From Streptococcus cuniculi (GTDB taxonomy: Bacteria; Bacillota; Bacilli; Lactobacillales; Streptococcaceae): DNA of 24,000 bases. Below, in pieces: positions 5,753 through 24,000 of this stretch. The notes under the pieces are model-generated. The model was not told the DNA's origin, made no database searches, and saw nothing but the letters and a program-made list of their open reading frames with translations. Position 1 is the stretch's first letter. The number at the start of each line of letters is the position of its first letter. The position numbers and the translations under genes were made by a program. The stretch spans positions 233,691-257,690 of the forward strand of contig NZ_MSJM01000001.1 of NCBI RefSeq assembly GCF_001921845.1, given 5' to 3'.

Positions 5753-5779
5753 GAAAGGCTGGACTTAAGCCAGCCTCTG
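5753..5779 (-). terminator. Terminator of the PTS/peptidase operon
   Basis: Minus strand: AGGCTGG-cttaagt-CCAGCCT followed by TTCTTATC. It sits about 25 nt downstream of the stop at 5801. Confidence 0.55.
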
Positions 5780-5800: not shown

Positions 5801-6700
5801 CTATCGGTTCACGGAGGTCGCTACCCTGTTAATGGTATGACGACGTCCACGAACAGCTACTGACATCGCAAAGATATTTTCCACATTGGCTAGTCCGCCG
5901 TAACCTGCATCGCCGATATGCTGAATGTCTACCCCTGCGACTTTGTTGCGAATTGCCAAATCTTCAATCACGCGCTCTGTGGCACTTTCTTGACTGGTTC
6001 CAATCGCTGACATGACAAGCGCTCCATGCGCATGAGCAAATTGTACAATCTTGACCAATTCTTCATCTGTGAAACCAGGAACTGTTCCGACAGCAGGTAC
6101 CAGTACCACATCTGCTCCTGCATCGATAAATTCTTTCATAATGTCCAGATTGGAAACAGGTTCATTGGCACCTGCCCCATGCATTTTCCCAGCAATAATG
6201 AGCCCATCAAAGTGCTCTCTGGCTACCCGAATATAATGGGCAATCTGCTTATTGGAAACGCCTGTACCAGGATTTCCTGTCAGACAAATAAAGTCTAGGC
6301 CTAGTTCATTGGCGGCTTGTAAGGTCTCAACAGAACAGATACGGCCTTCCTCCAAGCTGATGCGCCCCTCTAACATGGCCACATCTGCATCAATCGGTTC
6401 AAGATTGGCACCGATAGGACGTCCTACCAATTCTTTGAGCTTGCTGATAACCTCTTTTGATTCTCCCTCGATACCGTAGACAACAGGGTGGAAGCAATCA
6501 AATCCGTTTAAGAGCATCAAATCTGCACCAAAGGCACGCGCAATTTCAGCATTGGTCAGATTACCACCACACGTTGGTCTTGGAGCAACCATTTCTGAAC
6601 AAATCGTCCGTCCTTCACCAGCTTGAATCGCTTGTTTTAATTGTTTTCTATCGTAGGATAAAAAATCACTCGATGTACAATCTAATATTCGTTTTACCAT
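5801..6700 (-). CDS. Conserved protein of unknown function (alternating beta/alpha pattern, possibly TIM-barrel-like)
   Basis: About 299-aa ORF. The ATG at 6700 overlaps the upstream stop (TGATG) and follows a GAGGA RBS. I recognise no family signature by eye. The Gly-rich loops GNPGTG and AGKMHGAG suggest phosphate binding; that is an inference. Confidence 0.6.
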   Translation of the reverse strand: MVKRILDCTSSDFLSYDRKQLKQAIQAGEGRTICSEMVAPRPTCGGNLTNAEIARAFGADLMLLNGFDCFHPVVYGIEGESKEVISKLKELVGRPIGANLEPIDADVAMLEGRISLEEGRICSVETLQAANELGLDFICLTGNPGTGVSNKQIAHYIRVAREHFDGLIIAGKMHGAGANEPVSNLDIMKEFIDAGADVVLVPAVGTVPGFTDEELVKIVQFAHAHGALVMSAIGTSQESATERVIEDLAIRNKVAGVDIQHIGDAGYGGLANVENIFAMSVAVRGRRHTINRVATSVNR

Positions 6701-7851
6701 CAATTTTCCTCTTTCTTCATGTCTATTTCTTGTTCCAACACCGTCTTTAGCCGAGCTAAGGCTAGACCGTAAATACGGGTGTTCATTTTCAAATCATCTA
6801 AGTCAATCCACTCATCTGGCAGATGGGCAATATCGGTTTGACCCGGAAAACTAGGACCATAAGCAATAATATTGGGGACAATTTTCGCAAAGGTTCCTCC
6901 TGTCGTTGTCACAGGAGTCGCATCCTTTCCTGTACAATCATTGTAGGCTTGTTGCAGGGTTTGCACATAGCTGGACGACTTATCATAGAGTACCGGATCC
7001 CAGTTACTCAATACATCGATACGGATGGTCGGCGAGAGATGCCTTGTGATCTGTGCGACCAATTGTTTTTTCGTGCAAGCTGCTGGGTAGCTGATTGAAA
7101 ACTCAAACGAATGCCCTGCCTCCTTGCGTAACTGATAGCCTCTCATCACGACAGTGCCAAAATCGTCATCTGAAAAATGAATGCCTAATTTTCTACCGTC
7201 ATTGGTTGAAGAGAGGATAAAGTCATTGACAAATTGATACAGGTCAGCCACATGCTCGTCTTGGCTCGATAAGCGGAGGCGTACACGTCCTCTCTCCCCG
7301 TACACAACTGGCCATTTGCAATCCGGTGTCCAGCCAAATAGGGGAGGGTTTTCCTTGGTCAGGTAATGGGTCACACACTTGAAACCTGTTTCTTCATTTG
7401 TCCCAAACACAATGCGAACGGGATAAGGAAAGCGTACCCCCAACTCTTTTAAAACGTATAAGGCAAACAGGTTGGTCAAAATGGGACCCTTATTATCCAA
7501 GACACCTCTGCCATACATGCGATTGTCCTCAATCTCACAAGCTAGAGGATCGTGCTGCCAACCCTCTCCCGGCGCAACGACATCTACATGTCCAAAAATC
7601 CCAATGTAGCCGTCTGGATGATCTTCTCCGTACTGGGCATAGCCCACCTTGTGATCAATATTTTTAGTGGTAAATCCTAATTCTTCAGCAATGGTTAGGG
7701 CTTCGAGTAAGGCTGCTTTGGGACCTGGCCCAAATGGCGCCTCTTGGCTTGCTTCTCCCTCTACACTATAAATAGCGACAAGGCGTTGAATAGCTGCCTG
7801 TAACTGTGGCTGAATGTCTTCTAAATGCTTGATGAGTATGGTCTCATTCAT
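6700..7851 (-). CDS. M20-family Sapep/PepV-like dipeptidase
   Basis: Motifs GHVDVVAPGEGW, GRGVLDNKGP and FGTNEETG give the metal ligands and catalytic Glu expected for M20 dipeptidases. The likely start is ATG 7851 (MNETIL), after a GAGGGAG RBS. The tracked TTG at 7875 lies inside the upstream gene. Confidence 0.82.
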   Translation of the reverse strand: MNETILIKHLEDIQPQLQAAIQRLVAIYSVEGEASQEAPFGPGPKAALLEALTIAEELGFTTKNIDHKVGYAQYGEDHPDGYIGIFGHVDVVAPGEGWQHDPLACEIEDNRMYGRGVLDNKGPILTNLFALYVLKELGVRFPYPVRIVFGTNEETGFKCVTHYLTKENPPLFGWTPDCKWPVVYGERGRVRLRLSSQDEHVADLYQFVNDFILSSTNDGRKLGIHFSDDDFGTVVMRGYQLRKEAGHSFEFSISYPAACTKKQLVAQITRHLSPTIRIDVLSNWDPVLYDKSSSYVQTLQQAYNDCTGKDATPVTTTGGTFAKIVPNIIAYGPSFPGQTDIAHLPDEWIDLDDLKMNTRIYGLALARLKTVLEQEIDMKKEEN

Positions 7852-8818
7852 CTTCTCCCTCTTTTCTAACAACAAGGGGCTGCATGCGGTCAGCCAAGTA
7901 GCGGTCCAACCATTCCTGGTCTGCTACGCTATGCTCCATGCGCTGCCCGTCTCTCTTTGTCCGATAAACAACCGTCCCTTCTGTTTCAGTCGTCACCACA
8001 AAGGAGAAATTATCAATCGTTGAAGCACTCCCCCAACGTCCTTGATGATCCATCGCTACAACAGATATATCCCCTGCCTGCCCTCTGCGCGCAATCAATT
8101 CTTGTTCCAGAGAAAATGTTGCGATTTCACAGGCTTCTTGCGGGTGCTTTCCTTCTTTCATTAGGCGCACAATTTCATACGAAAGGATTCCCTTCATGAT
8201 ATCCTCGCCCAAGCCAGTCGCACTCGCTCCGCCGATTTGACTATCCACATACAAGCCTGAGCCTATAAAGGGAGAATCGCCAACGCGGCCTTTTTTCTTC
8301 ATAAAGAGACCACTGGTTGAGGTTCCTGCAACCATTTGCCCATGAGCATCGAGCGCAACCATCCCAACCGTATCATGACCTGCATAAGGGACCAATTGTT
8401 CCTGCTTCATATCCACCAAGCGATTATGGTAGTGGATTTTGGCACGATCTGTCAGCATTTCCTTTTGTTCAAATCCTTCCTTTTGGGCATAGGCCTTGGC
8501 CCCTTGGTCCACTAGAACATTGTTGACTGCTTGCTTACTTAGCTTTCTGGCCACTGAAATGGGATTGGCAACATCTTTTAGGGCGCAGACCGCTCCAAAA
8601 TCAAAACTTGTCCCATCCATATAAGCAGCATCCAACTCTACTTCCATTTCTTCATTTGGTAAACCACCGTAGCCTACGGATTTGTAATAAGGAAAATCTT
8701 CTACTGCTTTAATGGCTTCTTCTATTGCATCTCCTGCCGATTGATGATTGGCCAACAAGGTGCGCGATTGTTCTACACCTTCTAAGGCCATTCGCCATGT
8801 GGCAATCATTCCCCACAT
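7844..8818 (-). CDS. Ntn-hydrolase, glycosylasparaginase (aspartylglucosaminidase, AGA)-type
   Basis: 324-aa ORF. It has the N-terminal IATW motif and SVGYGGLPNEEMEVELDAAYMDG. The autoprocessing/nucleophile site is GHD|TVGMVALD, and the Asp-binding segment is GTSTSG...GRVGDSPFIGSG. The alignment with human AGA as I remember it (VNTWPF.., SVGFGGSPDE.., GHDTIGMVV.., GRVGDSPIPGAG) is closer than to the IHGGAG/GTVGAVA pattern of EcAIII-type isoaspartyl peptidases. Confidence 0.78.
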   Translation of the reverse strand: MWGMIATWRMALEGVEQSRTLLANHQSAGDAIEEAIKAVEDFPYYKSVGYGGLPNEEMEVELDAAYMDGTSFDFGAVCALKDVANPISVARKLSKQAVNNVLVDQGAKAYAQKEGFEQKEMLTDRAKIHYHNRLVDMKQEQLVPYAGHDTVGMVALDAHGQMVAGTSTSGLFMKKKGRVGDSPFIGSGLYVDSQIGGASATGLGEDIMKGILSYEIVRLMKEGKHPQEACEIATFSLEQELIARRGQAGDISVVAMDHQGRWGSASTIDNFSFVVTTETEGTVVYRTKRDGQRMEHSVADQEWLDRYLADRMQPLVVRKEGEDE

Positions 8819-9948
8819 TGTCTCTCCTCCTTATCCTTTCTTGTAATGGTTTCATTCTCTATCCCGTATCGATAATCTTGCTCCAGTATCAAGTCCAATT
8901 TTTCTCGTGTCATATCCTGTGCGACTGCCTGTAATAACCGATAGGTCGCTAGGACATCCTCCTTGTGGATAATGCCTTCATGAGTGTGCATATAGCGCAT
9001 TGGAATCGAAAGCGTGGTGGCTACAATCCCCTGCCCTGTCTTATGGATATTTCCCGCATCTGTCCCACCAGCTGTAAAACAGCTCAACTGATACGGAATC
9101 TGTTCCTTGCGGCATAGGTCTTCTAGGTAAATCAACAAGCCCCTGTTCGTAACGGTCATCGAATCAATCACGTTAATGGTCACTCCCTGCCCTAGCTTGA
9201 CATTGTTTTGATCCAAAGGAGTATCTCCTGCAAGAGTAGTATCAACCGCAAAGGCAATATCAGGAGCCATTGTAGCAGCAACTGTCCGAGCTCCTCGTAA
9301 GCCAACTTCCTCCTGAACAGTAGTCGCTAGGGTGATGCAATTTTTCAGCTCGCTCGTTGCCAGCTGCTGCAACACCTGCATGCCAACGGCGACGCTTATT
9401 CGATTATCAAAGGCCTTTCCAACTAAAAAGTTGGGATTTGCCAGACTAAGCATCTCGGTAGCTGGACACACCATATCTCCAATCTGAATGCCAAGTGCGA
9501 GCACTTCGTCTTTACTCGCCACTCCCAAGTCGATATAGAGTTGTTCGAGCGATAAGACCTGCTGACGCTTTTCAGGAGACAAAGCATGTACAGATGGACT
9601 GCCAATGATGCCGATATAGTCCTGACCTTGCTTGGTAAAAATACGGACACGGTGATTCAGCAAGACATGCGGCCACATATTGCCAACGGATTGGAGCTTC
9701 AGATACCCGTGTTCATCGATGTCTGATACAAGAAAACCGACTTCATCCATATGGGTTGCAATCATTATGTGAACCCCTGTCTCCGTCTTTGTCCCTACTT
9801 GAAACAAGCCAGATCCTAGACGATCAGTCCCGACAAACTCCGTGTTCAACTGGCTCATAAGATAGGCTAGCACTCTCTCTTCTTGACCAGAGATACCGCA
9901 GAGATTTGATAGCGTCTCTACGACCGTCCAATCAAATGGATTCATCAT
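8806..9948 (-). CDS. M42-family metallo-aminopeptidase (FrvX/YsdC/TET-like), catalytic residues intact
   Basis: M42 motifs are present: ATHMDEVGF (His/Asp), AFDNR (Asp), VQEEVGLRGA (catalytic Glu plus ligand), AVDTT (Asp) and MRYMHTHEG (His). The start is probably ATG 9948 or 9945 (MMNPFDW). The tracked TTG at 9966 lies inside the upstream gene. Confidence 0.85.
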   Translation of the reverse strand: MMNPFDWTVVETLSNLCGISGQEERVLAYLMSQLNTEFVGTDRLGSGLFQVGTKTETGVHIMIATHMDEVGFLVSDIDEHGYLKLQSVGNMWPHVLLNHRVRIFTKQGQDYIGIIGSPSVHALSPEKRQQVLSLEQLYIDLGVASKDEVLALGIQIGDMVCPATEMLSLANPNFLVGKAFDNRISVAVGMQVLQQLATSELKNCITLATTVQEEVGLRGARTVAATMAPDIAFAVDTTLAGDTPLDQNNVKLGQGVTINVIDSMTVTNRGLLIYLEDLCRKEQIPYQLSCFTAGGTDAGNIHKTGQGIVATTLSIPMRYMHTHEGIIHKEDVLATYRLLQAVAQDMTREKLDLILEQDYRYGIENETITRKDKEERQCGE

Positions 9949-10939
9949 CCTCCACCAACCTTTCAAAGTGATAGCGCCTCATATCTTCTATGGTCAATTC
10001 TTGCAAATACAGACGGAGCAACTGCTTCAAACATGCCACATCTTTCATATTGACGATATTGGAGAAGGGCGTTTTTTGCTTCAAGGGAATGTCCAATACA
10101 ACTGTCGGCGTGCCAGCTAGACTTTTATGAATAAAAGCCCCATCCGTTCCTGTTTCTTGTACCTCATGAATCAGACGAATCCCGTTTTTGGCCGCAACTG
10201 CTTCAAGGTGTTCTATTAGCTGTCGATTAGGCAACAAGGTCTTATCAAAATAGCGGATATAACAGGCTTCTTCTTGGTAGTGTGGCACGGGACTAGCTTC
10301 AATGACAAGAGCCAAATCTGGCCGAATGGTGGTCGTTGCTGTAATTGCACCTCTTTGCCCTGTCACCGAATGCGCGATACCACCGATACATAGGTGATAA
10401 GGAAGCTCCTCATCTTTCAACTCATTTAGTAGTTCTAATCCAAGTGCCAGACCAATCTTATTTTGAAGATTGTTACTCATAACTAGATGAGGTTGAAGGT
10501 ATTTGGTCCGGTGTTCAAGGACAATCGTATCCCCAATAGTCACTCCAAGGGCTTCGACCTCGCTTTTGCTATAGGCTCCGATATCCACCCGTAGGGCCTC
10601 ATCTACTGCAATCACTATCCCTGGAAAAGGTTTGTGTCGCCTGTCCAAGACCACAACATCCTGATAACGGAAAGCCTCTTTCGGCAAGGTCCCCACGGGA
10701 ACAAATTCCAAGGTTCCATCTTCTCGGAGGTTCGACACTATTCCCCCAGACTCATCTAGACTCGAACTAATCATCACCGTATAAGGATGCTGGCCTGCTT
10801 TCTTTGCAAAGATGGAGCCGAGCCTATCTTGAACAATAGCCATGCCTAGATGTTGGTATTGCTCTCTTAGATAATCACGAACGTCCTTTTCGTCCCCAGA
10901 TACTGCTGGTAACTGATACAATCGGTCAACTGCTGTCAT
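9932..10939 (-). CDS. M42-family paralogue with degenerate active site (predicted pseudo-peptidase)
   Basis: It aligns along its whole length with the neighbouring M42 protein, but the ligand positions are replaced. SSSLDESGG replaces THMDEVGF, NLQNK replaces AFDNR, IAHSVTGQRGA replaces VQEEVGLRGA, VIEAS replaces AVDTT, and LKQKTPFSN replaces MRYMHTHEG. The likely start is ATG 10939, after a GGTGA RBS. Confidence 0.8.
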   Translation of the reverse strand: MTAVDRLYQLPAVSGDEKDVRDYLREQYQHLGMAIVQDRLGSIFAKKAGQHPYTVMISSSLDESGGIVSNLREDGTLEFVPVGTLPKEAFRYQDVVVLDRRHKPFPGIVIAVDEALRVDIGAYSKSEVEALGVTIGDTIVLEHRTKYLQPHLVMSNNLQNKIGLALGLELLNELKDEELPYHLCIGGIAHSVTGQRGAITATTTIRPDLALVIEASPVPHYQEEACYIRYFDKTLLPNRQLIEHLEAVAAKNGIRLIHEVQETGTDGAFIHKSLAGTPTVVLDIPLKQKTPFSNIVNMKDVACLKQLLRLYLQELTIEDMRRYHFERLVEDDESI

Positions 10940-10948
10940 CACTATCAC

Positions 10949-11470
10949 CTACTCATACACATAGGAAGCAACATCATCTAAGGATTGATGATGTCCAACT
11001 TTTACCATGACCTCCGATAAGTGTCGGAAGGACTCACTAAGCCCAACACCACCCTTTTTCGGCATCTTGACCATGACCACTTGCTGCTTAAACGCTTCGA
11101 TAATCTCTTCATTTTCCTGGGAGCACATGACAATCGCTCGACATTCTGGCAACTGTTCATTGACGGTAGCGGCTAATTGAGCCGCCATTTCAGCATAGGG
11201 TTCGTAATTATAACAAGGACCGCATAGGAGCAAATCAGCCCTTACTTTCTTCAGTAGACCAAGCATTTTTTTCATGACTTCTGCCTTGTTGTCTTGAAAA
11301 TACCCAATACCGGAATAAGTGGTGGCAATCACCGTCAAAGACGGATCCAGATACTGTTGAAAGGTCAGGTAGGCACCAATCCCACCTTTTTCAACGGCTA
11401 ATGGGACCGCTGTCTGCTCTTTTCCACCTGCTCCTGCCTGAATTTGATCAAAAAATAATACAACTCTCAT
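10949..11470 (-). CDS. Short GrdB-family (glycine/sarcosine/betaine reductase component B) N-terminal-domain-like protein
   Basis: 173-aa ORF. MRVVLFFDQIQAGAGGKEQT ... IATTYSG ... DLLLCGPCYNYEPYAEMAAQLA resembles the N-terminus of GrdB as I remember it (RVVHYINQFFAGIGGEEKA ... GPAFNAGRYG). It is far shorter than GrdB (~430 aa) and lacks the Sec/Cys region. This needs HMM confirmation. Confidence 0.5.
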   Translation of the reverse strand: MRVVLFFDQIQAGAGGKEQTAVPLAVEKGGIGAYLTFQQYLDPSLTVIATTYSGIGYFQDNKAEVMKKMLGLLKKVRADLLLCGPCYNYEPYAEMAAQLAATVNEQLPECRAIVMCSQENEEIIEAFKQQVVMVKMPKKGGVGLSESFRHLSEVMVKVGHHQSLDDVASYVYE

Positions 11471-11500
11471 CCTTCATCCTTTCCTTGTTTGTTTTAAAAC

Positions 11501-11832
11501 CATGATATAAGAGCGTTTAAAAATCGATAGAAAATTAGGGAGACGGACGAAGAAATCGGATTTCTAGGAGGGCTCCTCTATTTTCCGAGATTTAGCTCGC
11601 ATTCAAATAACATGATATAAGAGCGTTTAAAAATCGATAGAAAATTAGGGAGACGGACGAAGAAATTGGATTTCTAGGAGGGCTCCTCTATTTTCCGAGA
11701 TTTTAGCTCGCATTCGAATAACATGATATAAGAGCGTTAAGAAATCGACAGAAAATTAGGGAGACGGACGAAGAAATCCGATTTCTAGGAGGGCTCCTCT
11801 ATTTTCCGAGATTTTAGCTCGCATTCAAATAA
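11501..11832. repeat. Tandem repeat, 3 copies of ~110-111 bp (11501-11610, 11611-11721, 11722-11832)
   Basis: Direct reading shows that each copy starts with CATGATATAAGAGCG and contains GGGAGACGGACGAAGAAATC(G/T/C)GATTTCTAGGAGGGCTCCTC. The copies differ by only a few substitutions or 1-nt indels. The unit length is not a multiple of 3. The array is intergenic, between the EIIC stop and the GrdB-like start. Confidence 0.95.
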
Positions 11833-11847
11833 CCATTCTCAATGGAA

Positions 11848-11907
11848 AGAGGAGAGATAACCGCAATCGTCTATTCTTCTGACATCCGTTGCAGTTACCT
11901 CTCTTCT
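11848..11907 (-). promoter_or_regulatory. Large intercistronic stem-loop (about 19-bp stem, 22-nt loop) just downstream of EIIC
   Basis: Arms 11848..11866 and 11889..11907. On the minus-strand RNA, AGAAGAGAGGUAACUGCAA pairs with UUGCGGUUAUCUCUCCUCU with two G-U wobbles and one mismatch. On the plus strand the wobble positions become A-C mismatches. Only a weak U-tract follows. Confidence 0.5.
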
Positions 11908-11927
11908 ATTATTTCGATTACAATTGC

Positions 11928-13274
11928 TTAATCAAATGAAAGATCATCTAGAGATATATCATCTAAATCATCTTCTTCTGCAGCTACCCCACTTGTCTCA
12001 TCTTGTAGATATTGCTTATCCAATACCTTAAAGAATGGATAGTAAACCGCGCAACCTAGTGCAACCAAGAAAATTTGGAACAAGCCTGCAACGATGCTTC
12101 CAGTTGATAACCAACCTGAGAAGAATAAAGGTGTGGTCCATGGAAGTGCTGCTCCTGTTGTATAAGGAATAATGCCTGCCATAGTTGCCAATGTCGCTAA
12201 AACTGTATTCATCAATGGGACAAATAAGAACGGCACTAAAATAACAGGGTTCAAGACAACCGGAAGACCAAAGATGACCATTTCGTTGATTCCGAAAATA
12301 CCAGGTAAGATGGAGAGACGGCCTAATTTTTTCATCCGTTCGCTCTTACCAGCAAAGACCATTAAGAGGACGAGTGATAGGGTACTACCGCCACCACCGA
12401 AGTTTCCAAAGAAGTCACCGAACGGTCCTGTAAAGATATTTGGCAACGGAAGTCCTGCATGGAAGGCTTCCAAGTTTTCAGTTGTCAATGCCAAATGAAT
12501 TGGGCTGAAAATAGTATTGGTAACCGCTGGGCCGTTGATACCAAAGAACCAGAACAAGGTTGATAGGAATTGATAGATTGGCTCAAAAACAACACTTTGA
12601 CCAAAGCCCATTAACGGCGCTTGTAGAATCTGATAGATAAAGTTATGCGCATATCCATAACTTGTCAATGAAAAGAGAATATTGACAAGCAAGAAAAAGA
12701 ACATAACAAACATACTTGGAATCAAAGCCGCAAAAGAAGCAGTAACTGCTGGTGGAACTCCGTCTGGTAGTTTAATCACCCATCCTTTTTCCTTGACAAA
12801 GGTAAAAATCCGCACCGCTAATAAGGCTGAAATCATGGCGATAAAGAGACCAGCAGATCCTAAGTTTCCAAAGGCAAATCCCTTGAACACCTTGTCTGCA
12901 TCATCCATAAAGGTTGGATGAACTTGCGGCGCTAAAATCAAGAAGGAAACCAGGGAAACCGCTCCTGCTGCAATCGCATCCGTGTTTAACTGTTTACCGT
13001 AAGAATATCCAATCCCTACCGCACCAAGTAGGCCTACACAACTAAAGGTGGCATTGATAATGGGGTCTAAAGAGCTTTCCCATCCTTGTCCAAATAGTTG
13101 CGCTACAAATTCTGAATATCCTGGAATTGGGAAATTCGCAACAACCAAAAAGATTGAGGCCACAATCAACAAGGGAGTGCTGACTAAGAAACCATCACGA
13201 ATAGCAATTAACTCCCTGTTGTTTCCTAGTTTGACAGCGAGAGGAGCTAAAATACGCTCTATTTTATCCAACAT
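11928..13274 (-). CDS. PTS EIIC, lactose/cellobiose (ChbC/CelB) family
   Basis: 448-aa polytopic ORF. The N-terminus (LAPLAVKLGNNRELIAIRDGFLVSTPLLIVASIF) is typical of Lac/Cel-family EIIC. It has an acidic C-terminal tail, EEDDLDDISLDDLSFD. An AAGGAGG RBS is present. Confidence 0.9.
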   Translation of the reverse strand: MLDKIERILAPLAVKLGNNRELIAIRDGFLVSTPLLIVASIFLVVANFPIPGYSEFVAQLFGQGWESSLDPIINATFSCVGLLGAVGIGYSYGKQLNTDAIAAGAVSLVSFLILAPQVHPTFMDDADKVFKGFAFGNLGSAGLFIAMISALLAVRIFTFVKEKGWVIKLPDGVPPAVTASFAALIPSMFVMFFFLLVNILFSLTSYGYAHNFIYQILQAPLMGFGQSVVFEPIYQFLSTLFWFFGINGPAVTNTIFSPIHLALTTENLEAFHAGLPLPNIFTGPFGDFFGNFGGGGSTLSLVLLMVFAGKSERMKKLGRLSILPGIFGINEMVIFGLPVVLNPVILVPFLFVPLMNTVLATLATMAGIIPYTTGAALPWTTPLFFSGWLSTGSIVAGLFQIFLVALGCAVYYPFFKVLDKQYLQDETSGVAAEEDDLDDISLDDLSFD

Positions 13275-13275
13275 G

Positions 13276-13602
13276 CTACTTTCCTCCTTTTTCCTTGAGC
13301 AGTTTAATGGCCCGTTTTAAAATCCGCTCACCATTAACATTTCCATAATCTTCCAGATCGATGACCGCAACTGGAATCCCTTGGGGTTCGTACTTTTTCT
13401 TGGTCTCTTCATATTTGAATTTGACCTGCGGTCCTAATAAAATCACATCTGGATGATGTTCTTCAACCGTCGAAGCGAGTTTTGCATCCGAAAATGCTTT
13501 CACTTCGATTGGCAACTGATGCTGGTTCGCAACATCTTGCATCTTACTAGCGACAAGGCTAGTAGACATGCCAGCGTTGCAAAACAAATAAATCTTTTTC
13601 AT
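13276..13602 (-). CDS. PTS EIIB, lactose/cellobiose family
   Basis: About 108-aa ORF with the active-site Cys in IYLFCNAGMSTS. An AAGGAGG RBS is present. The start is ATG 13602 or GTG 13605. Confidence 0.88.
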   Translation of the reverse strand: MKKIYLFCNAGMSTSLVASKMQDVANQHQLPIEVKAFSDAKLASTVEEHHPDVILLGPQVKFKYEETKKKYEPQGIPVAVIDLEDYGNVNGERILKRAIKLLKEKGGK

Positions 13603-13622
13603 CACTTTGACCTCCTTAATCC

Positions 13623-13942
13623 TTATTTTTCAATTTGATGAAATTTCTCATAGACTCCAATCGTTTCTTCTGCAAGCACTTTAATCACTTCTGAACTCAT
13701 CAGTTGATCCTCTGCATGCATCAGTAAGAGGTGATATTTTCTCCTTCCCCCGAGCTTTCCTTGCTAAGCAAGTCAAAGTGGACATCGTGCCCCTTTAAGC
13801 GGTATTCTTCTCCCTCTTCAATCAACTGCCGCGCTGTTTCAAATTCGTACCGCTTGGCTGCCTGAATCGCTTCCATAAATAAGGAACGTGCAGCTCCTAA
13901 GTTACTAATCATCTTAAAACAAATCATTTCCAACTCTTGCAT
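13623..13942 (-). pseudogene. PTS EIIA, lactose/cellobiose family, interrupted by a -1 frameshift near 13737..13740
   Basis: The tracked ORF (13721..13942, 73 aa) ends ...SGEGENITSY*. The adjacent frame continues YHLLLMHAEDQLMSSEVIKVLAEETIGVYEKFHQIEK*, which carries the conserved phospho-His segment (compare ChbA GEGKMKVSLVLVHAQDHLM). Changing the A4 run to A5 (GAAAAT to GAAAAAT) restores a 106-aa EIIA. Confidence 0.8.
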
Positions 13943-13979
13943 TATCTTCTCCTTTGTCTCATGCCCCTCTTATGCCTTG

Positions 13980-15894
13980 TCAATGTTGTACAATATACTG
14001 AATAAACTGATCCCGATTATCGATGGATACCAAGGTACGAATACTGTCCTGATCTGAAATAATCCGAGCTAACCAGTCAAAAAAGATGGTCATAAATTCC
14101 CGATCTGCTTCATTCAAGGCTAACAACATCACCATTTCTACCCTACTACCACCCCATTCTATTGGATGATCCAAATGTGCGATTGAAATAACGGATTGCC
14201 GACTATTTAATACCAGAGGATGAGGAATCGCCAGAGAATAGTCAAAAGAAGTGGCCGAGCAGGCTTCCCTTTGCAAACACGACTCTAAAAAAGAATCATC
14301 CACAATCGAGTACCGCTTTAATTTATCCACCATCACGGTGATTGCTTCTGTAGCTGTCTCAACCTTTAATTGCGGATAAAAGAAGGTTTCGTCAATAAAT
14401 CGCCCAATCATCATGTTAAATTCAATATTGGCCTGACGCTTTTCTAACTCATTTAATAATTTAAAGAGACTCAACTCATCCTGAGCATTGAAGAAAGGGG
14501 TGATAACAAGGGTCTCAACTGGAAGTCGATGCTTTAAGGGCACACAACTGACAATCAAATCAGCATTTTTCTCCAGCACAACCGATTCTTCAAAATAAGG
14601 TAAGCTACTCACAATCTCAATACGATTTTGAAACCGATCGGTGATTTTTTCAACCACCAATTTTTTCAGATGGGGATTCAGTGCACCAACCAAAATGGCT
14701 TTTTGCTTTTTGGCATGGGAGTCTTTAGCATAACTAGCTCCCAAATGAAGAGCGATAAAACCCACTTCTTCTTCCGATAAGCTCATCCCAATCATTTGAG
14801 ATAAACGATTGGCAATACAAACTGCCATGTCAAATACCAGCGGATACTGGGACTTGATATTTTTCAGTAGCAAATTCGGAACGTGAATCTGATTCTCCAA
14901 ACGCTCTAGTACCCCCTGTAAATGGATACATAAACCATGAACAAATTCAAGATCTTCACCAAAGTCAATGCCCAGGCTGTCCTTTATGGCTTCCAAGGTT
15001 TCTTTGACAAAGAGTTCCAGTTGTTTTTGTTGCGAACTGGCCTGATAGACATCTCTTTCCCGATAGCCAATTAAGAGCCTTGCCATCATCTTTACTTCAC
15101 AGGGCGGAATGGTAATACCAAGGAGCTGGGACACTTCCTCTAAAAACTGCTGGGCTACCTGCCACTCTTTGCTGCTTTCGATTGTGTCGTCTTTTGTATC
15201 ATAATGCACGATTTGTCCCACCAGCATACGGTCGATCGAGATTCCAATATGGACCAGTAAGACAGGAATTAAGGTCTGCCTGACCGGATAATCTAAGCGC
15301 GCTAAGGTCGCATCAAATAGCTTGGATATTTCCAACATGTTAAAGTTGGGGTAGAGGGTCGCTAGGCGATTCAGATTGATAAATTCTCCTTGAATTTCAC
15401 TGGTCAATAAGTCACGGTACAATTTCCGTTTCGGATACTCCAGCCCCTCTAGCAATAAGGTGTCCTTCTTCTTTTTTTAAGGACAGACCCTTATAGCCTT
15501 TGATCATTTTCCTCAGTTGCAGAATGTCCAAATCCAAGGTGTAAGAACTAATAAACAGCTGTTCTTCTAACTTGCTTAAGCGAATCCCTGCTGGATTCAA
15601 GAGCAATTGTCGCAATAACCAGCCGATTCTTTCTTCTGGCTTTTCGGGAATGACATTCATATACTCTTGAGGCATCTGCTTCTGAAACACATAATATTTT
15701 TCCCTATCCAGCCAGTATCCCCTATGCGTATGGGATTGAATGACCCCTGGAACAATCGCATTCATTTCGCCAATATCTGTTCGCAAGGTACGACTCGAAA
15801 TCATTAAACGTTTAGATAACTCACTCCCTTTTACCCATTTGCTTGGATACTTTTGGTATAAGATAGTGAGAATTCGATAATATCTTTGTTTCAT
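13980..15894 (-). pseudogene. PRD-domain PTS regulator (HTH-PRD-PRD-EIIB-like-EIIA-like, LicR/MtlR type) split by a frameshift in an A7 tract
   Basis: Two overlapping ORFs, 15412..15939 (HTH part) and 13980..15455 (the rest). The second contains the PRD His motifs (VHGLCIHLQG, FIALHLGASY) and an EIIA-2-like LAIPHP. Removing one A from the A7 run (15472..15478) fuses them as ...GLSLKKKKDTLLLEGLEYPK..., about 637 aa. The true start is probably ATG 15894 (MKQRYYRILT). Confidence 0.8.
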
Positions 15895-15924
15895 GCGCTT
15901 TCTCCCACTCCTTACTATATTCTT

Positions 15925-15933
15925 ATTATAGCA
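15925..15933 (-). promoter_or_regulatory. Putative extended -10 promoter (TGCTATAAT) of the PTS/peptidase operon
   Basis: The minus strand reads TGCTATAAT about 30 nt upstream of ATG 15894. The -35 is weak. The palindrome TTTCCTAA-N3-TTAGGAAA (15963..15981) lies just upstream. Confidence 0.35.
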
Positions 15934-15998
15934 AATCATTTTTCCAATACTAGAGAATTGTCTTTCCTAAGTGTTAGGAAATCATGCTCCCTTTTCCT

Positions 15999-16937
15999 CT
16001 AACGTGCAGGCTTCATCATGCTTAAAAATTCTGCCATGGCCCTGCTGACATAGCGCCCTCTCTTCCAATAAGCATAGACATTCCTCCTTGCATAATCAGT
16101 CCCCACTTTATAGTAGATGACAGAATGAGAAGTTGGTAAACCCAAAATCAAGAGATTCCCAACAAAGGAAATGCCCATCCCAGAAGCTGTAATCATATAG
16201 GCTGTTAACTGTTGGTCGACTTCTAGCAGAACCTTGGGCTCAAATGCCGCTTGCCGGCAGATTTTTCGTGCCCGTCTGCCTGTATCATTATCCGCTTTTT
16301 GTAAAATAAAGGCCTCTTGCTGGAAAAGTTCTAACGGGATAATCGGTGCTTCCTCCACCTCAAATCGACTTCGAATTTGATTAAGCGAGAGTTGATACTC
16401 CACCAATTCTTGATTGATAGGATAATGCTCTGGAACAGCTAACAAGAGATACTCTTGAAAGAATAACTGACGTTCTACTACCCTATCGTCCAGCTCATCA
16501 TTATCAATCAGTACATCAATCTCTCCTTTCTGCAGTTTTTCTTCTAATTTTCCCGTACTAGCTTCTTCTAGGGTGAGGCAAATATTAGGGTACAGAGCCG
16601 AAAAACGAGCCATGATAGGCGGAAGAACCAAGGCGGAGAATAAACTCGTCCCGCCAATCGTCAAACTCCCCACATGAGCCTCTTGCCACTCGTTTAAATA
16701 ATCCGTAAACTCTTGTTCAACCGCCATTATCTCCTCAATCGCCGCGATGTATTTTGCGCCACATTCCGTTATAGATAAAGGCTTAGAACTACGATCAAAA
16801 ATTGGATAGCCAATTCGTTCTTCTATTTTCTTCACCGAAGCACTAAGGGCTGGCTGCGAAATAAACAATTGCTGCGCCGCCTTTGAAAAACTTCTGGCCT
16901 TGTACACCTGATAGACATAATGCATTCCTGAAAACAT
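15999..16937 (-). CDS. LysR-family transcriptional regulator
   Basis: The N-terminal wHTH region (YKARSFSKAAQQLFISQPALSASVKKIEERIGYPIFDRS) precedes a LysR substrate-binding domain of typical length. An AAGGAGG RBS lies 5 nt before ATG 16937. The gene is divergent from aspA. Confidence 0.88.
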   Translation of the reverse strand: MFSGMHYVYQVYKARSFSKAAQQLFISQPALSASVKKIEERIGYPIFDRSSKPLSITECGAKYIAAIEEIMAVEQEFTDYLNEWQEAHVGSLTIGGTSLFSALVLPPIMARFSALYPNICLTLEEASTGKLEEKLQKGEIDVLIDNDELDDRVVERQLFFQEYLLLAVPEHYPINQELVEYQLSLNQIRSRFEVEEAPIIPLELFQQEAFILQKADNDTGRRARKICRQAAFEPKVLLEVDQQLTAYMITASGMGISFVGNLLILGLPTSHSVIYYKVGTDYARRNVYAYWKRGRYVSRAMAEFLSMMKPAR

Positions 16938-16949
16938 CAAAACCTCCTT

Positions 16950-17180: not shown

Positions 17181-17276
17181 AATATATACGTCAACCTGTT
17201 AAAACTATGAAACGTAACGAGGCAAGTGACTTTTGTCCCAGCCTTATCCCATCATCCCACATCGGAGGCACATCGT

Positions 17277-18698
17277 ATGAACAAACTGCGGATCGAACAC
17301 GATTCGATTGGAACAAAAGAAATCGCCCACTCTTCTTACTATGGTATTCATAGCCTACGTGCAGCGGAGAATTTTCCTATTACAAAACAAGCAATCCACT
17401 CCCAGCTCATCAACAGTTTAGCTGTCATCAAACAAGCAGCTGCAATTACAAACTATGAGGCTGGTCTCTTGGAGGGAACAGTCAAAGATGCGATTGTTCA
17501 GGCAAGTCAAGATATTTTAGACGGCTTATTCCACGATCAATTTATCGTAGATCCTATTCAAGGAGGAGCAGGAACTTCCATGAATATGAATGCCAACGAG
17601 GTCATCTGCAACCGTGCACTTGAGCTATTAGGCAATAAAAAAGGAGAATATCACATTCTCCACCCCAACGATCATATCAATGCTGGTCAATCGACCAACG
17701 ATGTAATTCCTACCGCAGGAAAAATAGCCACCATCCAATTAATGCAACAACTCAAACAGACCTTGCACACCCTTATTCTGGCGTTAGAAGACAAGGCGAC
17801 TGAATTTTATCCTATCTTGAAAATGGGCAGGACCCAGCTACAAGATGCCGTTCCCATCCGCCTCGGTCAAGAATTTCATGCCTATGCCATTGCCGTAGAA
17901 CGCTGCACCAATCGGTTGGACAGCATTCTTCAAGAATTGTATACGGTCAATTTAGGAGGCACCGCCATTGGAACAGGCTTAAACGCAGATCTCTACTACT
18001 TCCACCACATTGTCCCCAACCTATCCCGCATTACGCATTTACCCCTACAGCAAGCTGAAGATTTAGTGGACGGTACTCAACATGTCGATGTCTTTGTCAT
18101 GGCTTCAAATGCAGTAAAGACTTGCGCCGTGACTCTCTCTAAAATTGCAAGCGACCTACGCCTCCTTTCATCTGGCCCCAAGACAGGATTTGGAGAAATT
18201 ACCCTACCTGCCAAGCAAAATGGATCATCTATTATGCCTGGAAAAGTCAATCCTGTCGTTCCAGAAGTCATCAATCAGATTGCCTTTAACATTATCGGAA
18301 ACGATGTGACCATTGGACTAGCAGCAGAAGCTGGCCAACTGGAACTTAATGCCTTTGAACCCATTATTTTCTATAAATTGCTAGAATCAATTGAAACATT
18401 AACAAATGGCATTAAAACCTTTACAGATAATTGTATTCGTGGAATCACAGCCAATGCCAAGCGTTGCAATCAGCTCGTCACTTCAAGCGTCGGTATCGTG
18501 ACAGCTCTATGCCCTTATATCGGTTATGGCCAAGCTGCTTCTCTCGTCAAAGAAGCAATGACTTCAGGAAAAACTATTGAGGAACTAGCTTTACATCATC
18601 AGCTCATCTCTCAAGAAGAACTCGCAATCATCCTAAATCCCATCCATATGACACAACCAGGCATCTCTGGAAAAGTTTATAAGTCGAATCTATCATGA
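17277..18698 (+). CDS. aspA: Aspartate ammonia-lyase
   Basis: It has the class-II fumarase/aspartase signature GSSIMPGKVNPVVPEV, where the VVPEV continuation is typical of aspartase. Other motifs are TNDVIPT and an N-terminal RIEHDSIGTKEI. The start at ATG 17277 (MNKLRIEHD) follows a GGAGG RBS. The tracked GTG at 17226 has no RBS. Confidence 0.85.
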   Translation: MNKLRIEHDSIGTKEIAHSSYYGIHSLRAAENFPITKQAIHSQLINSLAVIKQAAAITNYEAGLLEGTVKDAIVQASQDILDGLFHDQFIVDPIQGGAGTSMNMNANEVICNRALELLGNKKGEYHILHPNDHINAGQSTNDVIPTAGKIATIQLMQQLKQTLHTLILALEDKATEFYPILKMGRTQLQDAVPIRLGQEFHAYAIAVERCTNRLDSILQELYTVNLGGTAIGTGLNADLYYFHHIVPNLSRITHLPLQQAEDLVDGTQHVDVFVMASNAVKTCAVTLSKIASDLRLLSSGPKTGFGEITLPAKQNGSSIMPGKVNPVVPEVINQIAFNIIGNDVTIGLAAEAGQLELNAFEPIIFYKLLESIETLTNGIKTFTDNCIRGITANAKRCNQLVTSSVGIVTALCPYIGYGQAASLVKEAMTSGKTIEELALHHQLISQEELAIILNPIHMTQPGISGKVYKSNLS

Positions 18699-18753: not shown

Positions 18754-18920
18754 ATTTCAGAAGCAACTCAAACTACACAACTCTAAAACGTTGGATGAGC
18801 TGGGGTATGATGCGGAATGTTTTGGAAGCAGTTGAATCAGCATAGCTCTAAAACACAGGGCTGATACCAGAGTTGAGAACAAGGATTTTGGAATCAGTTG
18901 AATCAGCACGGCTCTAAAAC
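18754..18920 (-). CRISPR. Type II-A CRISPR array: 3 x 36-nt repeats, 2 spacers (30 and 29 nt)
   Basis: Repeats in minus-strand sense are as follows. 18920..18885 is GTTTTAGAGCCGTGCTGATTCAACTGATTCCAAAAT. 18854..18819 is GTTTTAGAGCTATGCTGATTCAACTGCTTCCAAAAC. 18789..18754 is a degenerate terminal copy, GTTTTAGAGTTGTGTAGTTTGAGTTGCTTCTGAAAT. The spacers are at 18855..18884 and 18790..18818. The GTTTTAGAGCTATGCTG... start is typical of SpCas9-type repeats. Confidence 0.9.
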
Positions 18921-18994
18921 GTAGAAAAAAATTTTTCTGTTACATTTCGTAATTGCGCCATTCGTCTCAGCTGATTCCTTATGTTCGTATCTGA
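18921..18994 (-). promoter_or_regulatory. CRISPR leader
   Basis: A 74-nt AT-rich segment between the csn2 stop and the first repeat, which is the standard position in type II-A loci. Confidence 0.5.
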
Positions 18995-19660
18995 TTACAC
19001 CATATGCTCGGCAGTTAAAAAGTAATCTTGGTCGAGGATGTATTGGGGAAAATCGTATAATTTTCGTGGTTCTAAAAACAAGACGGTCTGATTCGATAAG
19101 CTAATATATTCTACCAATCGCGTCAGTTCCTTCCTTGTTAAATAGGCGCCACTATTGAAAAAGACAAGCAGACGTTTTTTCTGTAGATAGTTGTAGATTT
19201 GTAAAATTTCAAAACATTTTTCAAAAATAGTATCGCTTCTTGTCTCAATCTGAACCCCCAAAGCCTTGATTAGCTCTAAAATGGTAATCTCATCATATTC
19301 TAAATCTAATTCATTTTCCAAACATTCAAATGCAATTAAATCTGTGATCGTCGATGCCAACTTTTCAATCATGGATTTCACTTCAGGCTTTTCATTTAAC
19401 TGATTTTCTATTGTTGCATGGATTAATTTCAGTAGAGCTGGAGAATTGATATCATAGCCTAGAATATCTGTCACAAGCATCAGTTCATTTCCTGATAATG
19501 CCTTGTTTCTCTCATCAAAAATCTTCAAATCATGATTTTCAGGATACTGGTAAAAATTTCTAGTGATTGCCGCATAAAGCGCTGTATCCTCAACAGCTAG
19601 AATAGTCGGACTTTCAATAGAAAGAGCATCATCAAAAATAGGTAGATTAATCTTCACCAT
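18995..19660 (-). CDS. csn2: Type II-A adaptation protein Csn2
   Basis: 221-aa ORF immediately after cas2 in a cas9-cas1-cas2 operon. Its size and position match the S. pyogenes-type Csn2. Confidence 0.85.
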
Positions 19661-19991
19661 GATAGTCCTCCCCTAGAAAAACAATTCGATCCTCGGTATT
19701 TGCAATACTTGTATCCTTTTCACCATGCAGGTAAATCATCCTCGCAAACTGTTTTTCTGTTACTGTCAATAAAGTAATATGTCCCTTTTGTGGATTATTT
19801 TCTCTCAAACGCCCCAGCATCGCCTGGTTCGCTGTTCCGTTCAAGAGAAGTTTGCTATAAACTGAAAATTGATGCATGAGAAAGCCCTCACTCAGCAAAA
19901 ATTTTCGAAATTTACGATAGGCTTTTCGCTCGTCGGCTGTATCTGTTGGCATATCAAACATTAATATCATCCGCATATATCGATAACTCAT
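19647..19991 (-). CDS. cas2: CRISPR-associated endoribonuclease Cas2
   Basis: 114-aa [18 protein letters not shown]...[11 protein letters not shown]...GF.M.Q.SVY is typical of Cas2. It overlaps both cas1 and csn2. Confidence 0.9.
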
Positions 19992-20854
19992 ATCCTAAAT
20001 TCAGGAACTCCTTTCCCTTCATTATTCAATGCTTTTACAACTTTCTTCGTATAATCACTGACAATATTGGAGAGATACATTTCTTTTCCCATATAGGCAT
20101 AGGTCTCTGAAAAGATAGAAAATAGCTCCCGCTTTATTTTTACAAATGAAGATGTCCGATTCGTATAAACTATTCGATCAATAATTGGTCGAAAGGGCTC
20201 CATGATATCGCTAGCAAAATTGAATTGGTTAAATTGATTGACGTGTTTTAGACCAAACTGGGTCATACAACCTGCTACAACCACCTCACGCGCAAACAAA
20301 CTCAACAATAAGGTATAGCCGTAATCAAGTGCTGCATTGATATCGTTATCCTCTTCCCTAGAAAAGCCATTTCCAAACAAGCGATTAAAGTAAATTCTCG
20401 CCGCATGCCCTTCTCGGTTAGTCGGATCAAAAACTTCCAACTCCCTATGCAAACGCATGAGTGACTCTGACTTCTCATAGAAACCATATTCTCCTAAAAC
20501 ATAACTCTGATTTAGAATTTTTTGAGAGATAATATCTGTCCACACGCTGGCCTTCATTTCTTCTAACCAAGCAACCTGTTTTGCCAATTGCAGACTCGAA
20601 TCATGCCGACCATAGTAAGGCATGAGCATGGATTTTGGCAAGCGTTTATCATCGCAAAAAATCACTAAGATATTCTCATCCACCAAACGCTTCATCAGCA
20701 TCGTCGAAAGCAAGATATCCGTCGTCTCAAGTAGCAAGATGTCAATCTCGGACAGATGAATCAACTCCGTCCGAGAGGCATCTTTAAAAATCAAGTGATT
20801 ATTCTTATAAGATAGTTTAGAGTGTGTATTGACTACTACGGTGCGCCAGCCCAT
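19988..20854 (-). CDS. cas1: CRISPR-associated integrase Cas1 (type II)
   Basis: 288-aa ORF. The sequence [23 protein letters not shown] ... [11 protein letters not shown] ... is typical of type II-A Cas1. The start overlaps the cas9 stop by 1 nt. Confidence 0.92.
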
Positions 20855-23800: not shown

Positions 23801-24000
23801 TACTCACTACCTTTGATTTTGGACAAGATGCCCTTGAGGTAACGATAGAAATCTTCCTGCTTCACACCATTTTCGATATAACCTGCATAGCCATGTTTAC
23901 TAGTATTTTTGAATATGTCTGAATAGCTATCTGGTACATGATTCTTGATAAATTTCTTCAACTGAGCCAAGTCTTCCTGGTGTTCTTCATACCGTTTGAC
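20854..24000 (-). CDS. cas9: Cas9 (SpCas9-like, type II-A), N-terminal ~320 aa outside the window
   Basis: The frame is open to position 24000 ([10 protein letters not shown] precedes the tracked 'M'). It is colinear with SpCas9 from about residue 320. The HNH motifs are [10 protein letters not shown] and [10 protein letters not shown], RuvC-III is [11 protein letters not shown], and the C-terminus is [38 protein letters not shown]. Confidence 0.97.

Follow-up and report, generated by a model that had tools for sequence, protein, structure and literature searches.

The window analysed here, a stretch of 24,000 nucleotides from Streptococcus cuniculi (contig NZ_MSJM01000001.1, positions 233,691 to 257,690), contains an operon in which a sugar phosphotransferase system (PTS) of the Lac/Cel family is found together with a glycosylasparaginase-type hydrolase and peptidases. 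A preliminary description, made from the letters alone, regarded it as a candidate system for the use of asparagine that still carries N-acetylglucosamine (GlcNAc-Asn). We consider it probable that the operon is the S. cuniculi version of the ega-type locus by which enterococci catabolize this compound. Below, the genes and their products are described, followed by their distribution and relatives, the pathway to which they may belong and the alternatives to it.

The operon and its gene products

Listing and translation of the open reading frames (ORFs), together with Pfam and NCBIfam scans, gave ten gene products, all on the minus strand and in the order previously given, between 5801 and 15939. 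The domain identity of each gene that had been named was upheld by these scans. The earlier count of eleven genes falls to ten, the regulator being split into two ORFs by a frameshift, and the overlapping or abutting junctions are found for most gene pairs, but not for EIIC and the GrdB-like gene, which are 457 bp apart. The features, in the direction of transcription, are:

15894 to 5801, minus strand: operon, with genes for a PRD regulator, EIIA, EIIB, EIIC, a GrdB-like protein, a dead M42, a live M42, a glycosylasparaginase, a short-lid M20 and DUF7916
13980..15894, minus strand: PRD-type regulator, HTH_11/Mga plus two PRD plus EIIA_2 (Pfam, NCBIfam), as two ORFs, 15894/15939..15412 and 15455..13980
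13623..13942, minus strand: Lac/Cel-family EIIA, PTS_IIA PF02255 62.7 bits, covering profile positions 2-65 of 94; frameshifted, ORF stop at 13721
13276..13605, minus strand: Lac/Cel-family EIIB, PF02302 63.8 bits, TIGR00853 89 bits; active-site Cys in LFCNAGMSTS
11928..13274, minus strand: Lac/Cel-family EIIC, probable ega-type transporter, TIGR00410 lacE 402 bits (cut-off 236)
11848..11907, minus strand: strong hairpin in the EIIC/GrdB-like spacer, stem ~17 bp, directly 3' of the EIIC stop codon
11501..11833, strand not assigned: tandem repeat in the EIIC/GrdB-like spacer (Tandem Repeats Finder: period 111 bp, 3.0 copies, 95% matches)
10949..11470, minus strand: GrdB-like protein, GrdB_like_no_Se NF041545 218 bits (cut-off 175); N-terminal half of selenoprotein B, no selenocysteine
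9932..10948, minus strand: M42 paralogue, pseudo-peptidase, PF05343 145 bits; likely start ATG 10939
8806..9966, minus strand: intact M42 (TET-type) aminopeptidase, PF05343 314 bits; likely start ATG 9945
7844..8818, minus strand: glycosylasparaginase-type N-terminal nucleophile (Ntn) hydrolase, Asparaginase_2 PF01112 216 bits; autocleavage and nucleophile D149|T150
6700..7875, minus strand: Sapep/PepV-family M20 dipeptidase, TIGR01887 324 bits (cut-off 208); likely start ATG 7851
5801..6703, minus strand: DUF7916 protein, PF25509 429 bits
5753..5779, minus strand: terminator-like hairpin 3' of DUF7916, AGGCTGG-CTTAAGT-CCAGCCT read at 5779-5753

The Ntn hydrolase contains the motifs IATW, GHDTVGM and GRVGDSP that had been read in its translation. 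Its best solved relative is the glycosylasparaginase of Flavobacterium, with 192 bits as against 122 bits for isoaspartyl peptidase/L-asparaginase, and it scores 114 bits where the cut-off for the NCBIfam beta-aspartyl-peptidase equivalog is 567; these scores favour the AGA type, as originally called, over a plain L-asparaginase or isoaspartyl dipeptidase. Alignment to 1p4k places equivalents of W11, S50, T152, T170, R180, D183 and T203/G204 in the protein, and in 71 linked homologues all of these are invariant save one: the T170 equivalent is replaced by S in 2 of them, the other 69 having T. The features that mark a glycosylasparaginase, namely the H-D|T site, the Asp-binding Arg and Asp, the oxyanion Thr-Gly and the sugar-stacking Trp, are thus all present. 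The enzyme has the Ntn-hydrolase fold family, the HDT site and the equivalents of Trp11, Arg180, Asp183 and Thr203/Gly204 in common with the Flavobacterium/Elizabethkingia and human glycosylasparaginases (EC 3.5.1.26; 1p4k, 1apy), from which it differs in being cytoplasmic, PTS-linked and extended at the C-terminus. Position 175 is basic in 70 of the 71 linked homologues and Met in Flavobacterium, which is to be taken as a lead only. The window enzyme may act on a 6-phosphorylated substrate.

The two M42 genes encode proteins of very different condition, as had been proposed. In the first, S, Q, H-S, E and T stand where an M42 enzyme has its metal ligands, respectively His, the bridging Asp, Glu-Glu, Asp and His. 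The second, for which the best solved relative is Bacillus subtilis YsdC (1vhe, 268 bits), retains all seven catalytic and ligand residues, including the two-metal site His, Asp, Glu-Glu, Asp, His. Among 37 related loci with a tandem M42 pair, the second copy is intact in every one, while in the first copy the bridging Asp and the C-terminal His are gone from all 37 and the catalytic Glu from 35. Since the first copy is degenerate in all 37 pairs, the dead M42 is a conserved partner and not a recent pseudogene; possibly, the dead and live proteins form a mixed TET complex. A dead-then-live pair follows the GrdB-like gene in loci that include L010, L015-L017, L022-L024, L047-L086 and others. 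The M20 dipeptidase keeps its HVD, DNKG, NEE, PD and H motifs when aligned to 3khz and 1lfw. It is without the lid residues, about 214-316, and so has ~100 fewer residues than PepV and Sapep. Such short forms, of 368-380 amino acids, are also found in Streptococcus respiraculi, Erysipelothrix and Pseudoleptotrichia.

The EIIC protein had been described as ChbC-type, and this was an overstatement: its membership of the Lac/Cel family is clear from the lacE score but, with 176 bits, it does not reach the cut-off of 760 for the NCBIfam chitobiose IIC (ChbC) equivalog. Directly downstream, the 457-bp gap before the GrdB-like gene holds the hairpin and the tandem repeat, and folding of the RNA of 11930-11480 gave a z-score of -5.1 for the whole region. 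On the strength of the predicted fold, the hairpin may be an internal terminator, an attenuator or an RNA-stabilising element between the PTS and catabolic genes. The 111-bp repeat belongs to no Rfam family and had no exact copy among the 89 loci fetched to that point. It is absent from S. respiraculi, in which the same spacer is 116 bp, and the short-read contigs L088 and L089 stop at it; it may belong to the intergenic repeats that are dispersed in streptococcal genomes. At the far end of the operon, the terminator previously placed at 5753-5779 does form a hairpin, although its T tail is weak and a consensus scan gave no call.

The GrdB-like protein, at 173 amino acids, matches positions 2-163 of the 347 in the GrdB profile and is not a full-length GrdB (~430 amino acids, with selenocysteine in the C-terminal half). 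NCBIfam labels NF041545 a 'GrdB-related putative oxidoreductase'. The motifs D8-Q9, G13/G15/K17, C83-G84-P85 and MPKKGG are invariant. An AlphaFold2 model (predicted local distance difference test, pLDDT, 96) is of a small alpha/beta domain, for which a Foldseek search of the PDB gave generic alpha/beta folds, with a template modelling score of at most 0.52, and no close solved relative.

The last gene, entered in the preliminary description as an unknown protein, stands as a gene and is identified by Pfam as DUF7916. Mean column identity is 72% across Streptococcus, Abiotrophia, Leptotrichia and Anaerococcus, and the sequence has a beta/alpha repeat pattern; the protein is probably a (beta/alpha) barrel enzyme. 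A model built without an alignment had a pLDDT of 46.7 and was unusable for a fold search, and a DUF7916 profile run against PDB sequences found nothing significant, the best E-value being 0.016 for a GH3 barrel segment. The gene is the first of the locus in Leptotrichiaceae (Leptotrichia, Pseudoleptotrichia) and the last elsewhere. In other genomes the 'copper homeostasis' TIM-barrel protein CutC is linked to the asparaginase-M20 pair, sometimes together with DUF7916 (L001-L003, L004, L012-L014, L016, L025-L045 and L048-L086; L001 is without an adjacent PTS or GrdB-like gene). Common ancestry of DUF7916 and CutC was considered and is not supported (hhalign probability 36%). The linkage of CutC suggests that it may have a part in the catabolism of glyco-Asn that has so far gone unrecognised; a literature search joining CutC, asparaginase and N-glycan found only a STITCH-based association in Xanthomonas.

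Distribution of the gene set and described relatives

In a genome scan with an alignment of the GrdB-like protein, at least 253 GTDB species representatives had a relative, and 80 loci were returned. Components were counted, by phmmer with the window proteins as queries, in 51 loci from other species with flanks of 6 kb or more upstream and 7 kb or more downstream:

EIIC: 51/51 loci
EIIB: 50/51 loci
Asparaginase: 48/51 loci
M20: 49/51 loci
Active-type M42: 30/51 loci
Degenerate M42: 25/51 loci
CutC: 36/51 loci
DUF7916: 16/51 loci
PRD regulator: 38/51 loci
EIIA: 43/51 loci

EIIC immediately precedes the GrdB-like gene in all 51. The module spans Bacillota and Fusobacteriota, the taxa being Leptotrichia, Erysipelothrix, Abiotrophia, Granulicatella, Streptococcus, Carnobacterium, Anaerococcus, Helcococcus, Lachnospiraceae, Clostridium, Paraclostridium, Tissierella, Vagococcus and Enterococcus. 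The neighbourhood check proposed with the preliminary description therefore comes out in favour of a co-conserved core (48-51 of 51 loci), and because of this synteny the view that the PTS and the downstream genes are unrelated neighbours is rejected. Three loci have the PTS and the GrdB-like gene with no asparaginase or M20 in the sequence examined (that of L074 ends ~200 bp past the GrdB-like gene), and in L055 a MupG-like gene directly follows the GrdB-like gene, with no asparaginase. Thus, the GrdB-like protein, kept next to EIIC where the asparaginase is missing, tracks the EIIC clade and not the asparaginase.

Other genes accompany the module in some of its relatives. A MupG/GH170 6-phospho-glycosidase gene occurs in 21 related loci and is not found in the window; the loci listed with this family are L048-L051, L055-L061, L064, L066, L069, L072, L073, L075, L077, L081, L086, L046 and L047. 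A ROK-family protein is encoded in two, from Helcococcus (L065) and Anaerorhabdus (L062), of which the latter is without AGA and M20. The MupG/GH170 and ROK additions fit phosphorylated, GlcNAc-containing substrates, and the MupG/GH170 variants may take chitobiosyl-Asn or related GlcNAc glycosides. An RDD-family membrane protein is encoded just upstream of EIIB in many relatives (L049 7263-7910, L055 7267-7845, L062 6827-7384 and 7676-8239, L065 7610-8224, L080 7621-8226); neither S. cuniculi nor S. respiraculi has this gene in its locus.

The closest described system is the ega locus of Enterococcus faecalis, which comprises the glycosylasparaginase EgaG, EIIB and EIIC, with an adjacent GntR regulator and dipeptidase, as outlined in two papers (PMC11549559, PMC11976118) that cite Combret et al. 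(Res Microbiol 175:104169). According to these papers, a GrdB-type 'putative oxidoreductase' gene is a pseudogene there and is encoded in other strains, and CelA1 is the EIIA of the E. faecalis 'GlcNAc-L-Asn PTS', the latter being stated by the same group. The ega locus is described as required for GlcNAc-Asn use, with transport shown genetically, and the pathway is reported to matter during infection. Hence, the pathway, which had been supposed to be undescribed, is not new, because a PTS-coupled GlcNAc-Asn route was published in 2023/24 for E. faecalis ega; the functional idea itself, that a Lac/Cel PTS imports GlcNAc-Asn and an AGA-type Ntn hydrolase cleaves it, matches the role reported for ega. 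As far as the descriptions go, both loci hold the glycosylasparaginase, Lac/Cel EIIB and EIIC, a GrdB-like gene directly after EIIC, and the M20 dipeptidase. They differ in regulation and supply, with GntR and the shared CelA1 in E. faecalis, but a PRD/EIIA_2 regulator and an EIIA of its own (both frameshifted) in the window, where the dead/live M42 pair and DUF7916 are additions to what is described for ega. The order differs too, being M20-AGA-PTS-GrdB-like in enterococci, whereas in the window the PTS comes first and AGA-M20 last. An enterococcal locus (L079) was among those recovered. It is E. gallinarum-like (97-98% identity), has a GntR/UTRA regulator and follows the published ega order, GntR-M20-AGA-EIIC-GrdB-like, and then has an M42 pair. 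Its asparaginase is 56% and its EIIC 55% identical to that of the window; phmmer annotation detected no EIIB in it. A protein search seeded with its asparaginase gave matches dominated by E. gallinarum and no named E. faecalis protein.

In the alf-2 operon of Lacticaseibacillus casei, which serves the use of fucosyl-alpha-1,6-GlcNAc-Asn (6'FN-Asn), the asnA2 glycosylasparaginase gene adjoins pepV (Becerra et al. 2020, PMC6960285), so that the earlier description of pepV beside asnA2, with a permease and not a PTS, was correct. The two systems have in common an asnA2-type enzyme beside a pepV-type M20, a link to aspartate catabolism and cytoplasmic cleavage of GlcNAc-Asn; alf-2, however, uses the major facilitator superfamily permease AlfH, the fucosidase AlfC and the kinase SugK, and has no PTS, GrdB-like protein, M42 or DUF7916 (PMC6960285). 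Domain scans found no counterparts of AlfH, AlfC or SugK among the ten products or their neighbours in the window. GlcNAc-Asn itself gave no growth in L. casei (PMC6960285). A further parallel is provided by GH170 (MupG/ChbE) operons, in which a Lac/Cel PTS for a GlcNAc-containing beta-glycoside is likewise coupled to cytoplasmic cleavage of the phosphorylated product; ChbE of L. paracasei chb cleaves PTS-phosphorylated diacetylchitobiose (PMC12791066). There, a glycosidic bond is cut, whereas the bond cut by the window system would be an amide (Asn-GlcNAc), and the window has no GH170 gene.

Likenesses are also found in the frv, sgc and ypd operons of Escherichia coli, each of which, like the window, unites a PTS, a PRD-type regulator and an M42 peptidase (FrvX, SgcX and YpdE, respectively). 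They differ in having other PTS families and a single M42, and no asparaginase, GrdB-like protein or M20. A search of the literature on FrvX, SgcX and YpdE found no explanation of the pairing of PTS and M42. An asparaginase-M20-CutC trio in CP060636 (Bacillota) has, 3 kb upstream of it, a separate ypd-like PTS/peptidase cluster (L002/L003 1.3-8.7 kb), which encodes a PRD regulator, M42, the PTS components EIIA, EIIB and EIIC, an aminotransferase and an M24 Xaa-Pro peptidase.

Proposed pathway and alternatives

GlcNAc-Asn is the stub that remains on asparagine after deglycosylation and digestion of N-glycoproteins. In the pathway that we favour, EIIC and EIIB, fed by EIIA, would take up GlcNAc-Asn, and possibly short GlcNAc-peptides, the sugar being phosphorylated on uptake as by other PTS of the family, presumably at the 6-position. 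The self-cleaved Ntn hydrolase (D149|T150) would then split the beta-aspartyl-glucosylamine bond to give aspartate and a glycosylamine, which would decay to GlcNAc(-6P) and ammonia, and GlcNAc(-6P) would enter central amino-sugar catabolism. Trimming of the residues next to the glyco-Asn would most likely fall to the live M42, its dead paralogue and the short-lid M20. The GrdB-like protein is more likely to be tied to the transporter or to the phosphorylated product than to the asparaginase, and DUF7916 (CutC in other genomes) may be an enzyme of the same pathway. Within this scheme only transport and cleavage have experimental backing, in both cases from E. faecalis. The fate of the aspartate is suggested by two genes upstream of the operon:

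15999..16940, minus strand: LysR regulator, neighbour of the operon
17226..18698, plus strand, divergent: aspartate ammonia-lyase aspA, NF008909 682 bits (cut-off 510)

The adjacent aspartase is a possible sink for the released aspartate, which it would pass on to fumarate. Both neighbours are also present in S. respiraculi, and the Erysipelothrix cluster itself encodes an aspartase (646 bits), with genes for fumarase-like and malic enzymes lying upstream. The presence of an aspartase in or near the cluster therefore fits aspartate as a product.

Several points weigh against equating the window operon with ega. In this strain, the 457-bp gap, in which the hairpin and the repeats lie, could break the coupling of the PTS genes to those downstream. 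Orthology was assessed through the E. gallinarum-like locus, as a stand-in for EgaG and EgaC of E. faecalis. OG1RF_10933-10939, as described, lists no M42 pair, DUF7916 or PRD regulator, and the extended form could take a different or larger substrate. Finally, pepV is dispensable for the use of 6'FN-Asn in L. casei (PMC6960285).

Whatever the ancestral role of the locus, its state in this strain has to be considered separately, and we hold the chances to be evenly balanced that it is a decaying, non-functional relic. The regulator gene, preceded by a TGcTATAAT extended -10 and an AAGGAG ribosome-binding site upstream of its ATG at 15894, and giving a weak match to the FrvR model in the NCBIfam scan, has gained one A within the A7 run at 15478-15472 relative to the intact 637-amino acid orthologue of S. 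respiraculi, which parts the DNA-binding portion from the PRD/EIIA_2 portion. EIIA, compared with the intact 108-amino acid EIIA of S. respiraculi, has a one-base deletion near 13728/13727, and its phospho-His motif, LLLMHAEDQLM, is out of frame, continuing in another frame. Both frameshifts are also present in the Logan assembly of ERR1430728, the contigs of which stop at the 111-bp repeat, and the insertion of this repeat between EIIC and the downstream genes points the same way. Regulators of the LicR/MtlR type are activators. With such a regulator split, the operon in this strain is probably silent, poorly expressed or dependent on other factors. Against decay, the eight other genes are full length, and identity to S. 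respiraculi is 80-94% in the three proteins compared (AGA 91%, GrdB-like 80%, DUF7916 94%); the asparaginase is 100% identical to an S. cuniculi protein. A read error or a reversible slip might explain the A7 run, and the Logan and GenBank assemblies may rest on the same reads. Nor would the loss of EIIA by itself necessarily disable the system: the EIIA of E. faecalis is a shared one, and one from another locus can serve such a PTS. In S. respiraculi the locus is fully syntenic (aspA, LysR, regulator, EIIA, EIIB, EIIC, GrdB-like, M42, M42, asparaginase, M20, DUF7916, YqgQ, rhodanese), with the regulator and EIIA both intact.

As to the substrate, it is possible, although we would put it forward only tentatively, that the extended locus handles N-glycopeptide stubs or chitobiosyl-Asn and not free GlcNAc-Asn. 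The PTS would then import Xaa-Asn(GlcNAc)-Xaa, which the M42 complex and M20 would trim in the cytoplasm before the asparaginase acts. The conservation of the dead/live pair in all 37 tandem pairs, the linkage of M20 in 49 of 51 loci and the MupG/GH170 gene of the 21 related loci can be read in this way, as can the need of glycosylasparaginases for free alpha-amino and alpha-carboxyl groups (PMC6960285). Such an assignment is at odds with the use of GlcNAc-Asn by E. faecalis through a locus described without M42 genes and with the dispensability of pepV in L. casei, and the M42 pair is missing from ~40% of loci. Moreover, to our knowledge no Lac/Cel PTS carries peptides. A fuller and still more speculative form of the idea is that the extended loci are cytoplasmic lines for PTS-imported N-glycopeptide stubs, in which a hetero-oligomeric dead/live M42 and the short-lid M20 would free glyco-Asn, the EIIC clade would have in the GrdB-like protein a new enzyme or accessory, and DUF7916 and CutC would act on the phosphorylated glycosylamine or sugar.

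It is unlikely that the operon salvages beta-aspartyl or D-Asx peptides (muropeptide fragments, for example) by means of an Ntn hydrolase of the isoaspartyl peptidase or plain L-asparaginase kind, the PTS genes being mere neighbours. Asparaginase_2 does span these activities as well, there are three peptidase genes in the operon, and MupG, from a family of peptidoglycan-recycling enzymes, is encoded in some related loci. However, both the beta-aspartyl-peptidase equivalog score and the comparison with solved structures given above are against such an assignment, as are the invariant sugar-stacking Trp, the EIIB-EIIC-GrdB-like-AGA synteny across Bacillota and Fusobacteriota, and the requirement for the E. 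faecalis locus, as reported, in the use of GlcNAc-Asn. The Salmonella fra locus also has an asparaginase-type enzyme, and the substrate might accordingly be an Amadori compound or other glycated amino acid, for example fructose-asparagine, as the preliminary description had suggested for Amadori compounds in general, but this is very improbable: no deglycase or kinase is evident among the ten products, which match only the families reported here, Lac/Cel PTS take beta-glycosides, and the AGA bears the glycosylasparaginase signature. The ega-type reading, with GlcNAc-Asn as the substrate, is retained in preference to these.

Flanking elements and significance

Two further features of the window lie outside the operon. 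At 18755-24000, on the minus strand, is a type II-A CRISPR-Cas system with cas9 (running off the window end), cas1, cas2 and csn2, and with a tiny, degenerate array at 18755-18920 of three 35-nt repeats spaced by 65-66; in S. respiraculi the equivalent position is free of cas genes. At 2346-2653, on the plus strand, is the Rfam family Streptococcus sRNA 8 (SSRC8_2, RF02616), with 86 bits against a gathering score of 72.

Through the core pathway, what finally remains of N-glycoproteins becomes food for host-associated bacteria. The published enterococcal locus is its minimal form, and the extended form is the commoner, being in the majority across Bacillota and Leptotrichiaceae. What is new here is this widespread extended architecture, together with four conserved proteins: the GrdB-like protein, the inactive M42, DUF7916/CutC and the short-lid M20. 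For experiments, S. respiraculi is the better model, the S. cuniculi locus being probably crippled. The question of why PTS operons carry M42 peptidases can be put here with a defined substrate and, if the extended loci do prove to process N-glycopeptide stubs, this would be the first concrete substrate logic for the PTS-M42 pairing of frv, sgc and ypd and would give a function to CutC-like and DUF7916 proteins.

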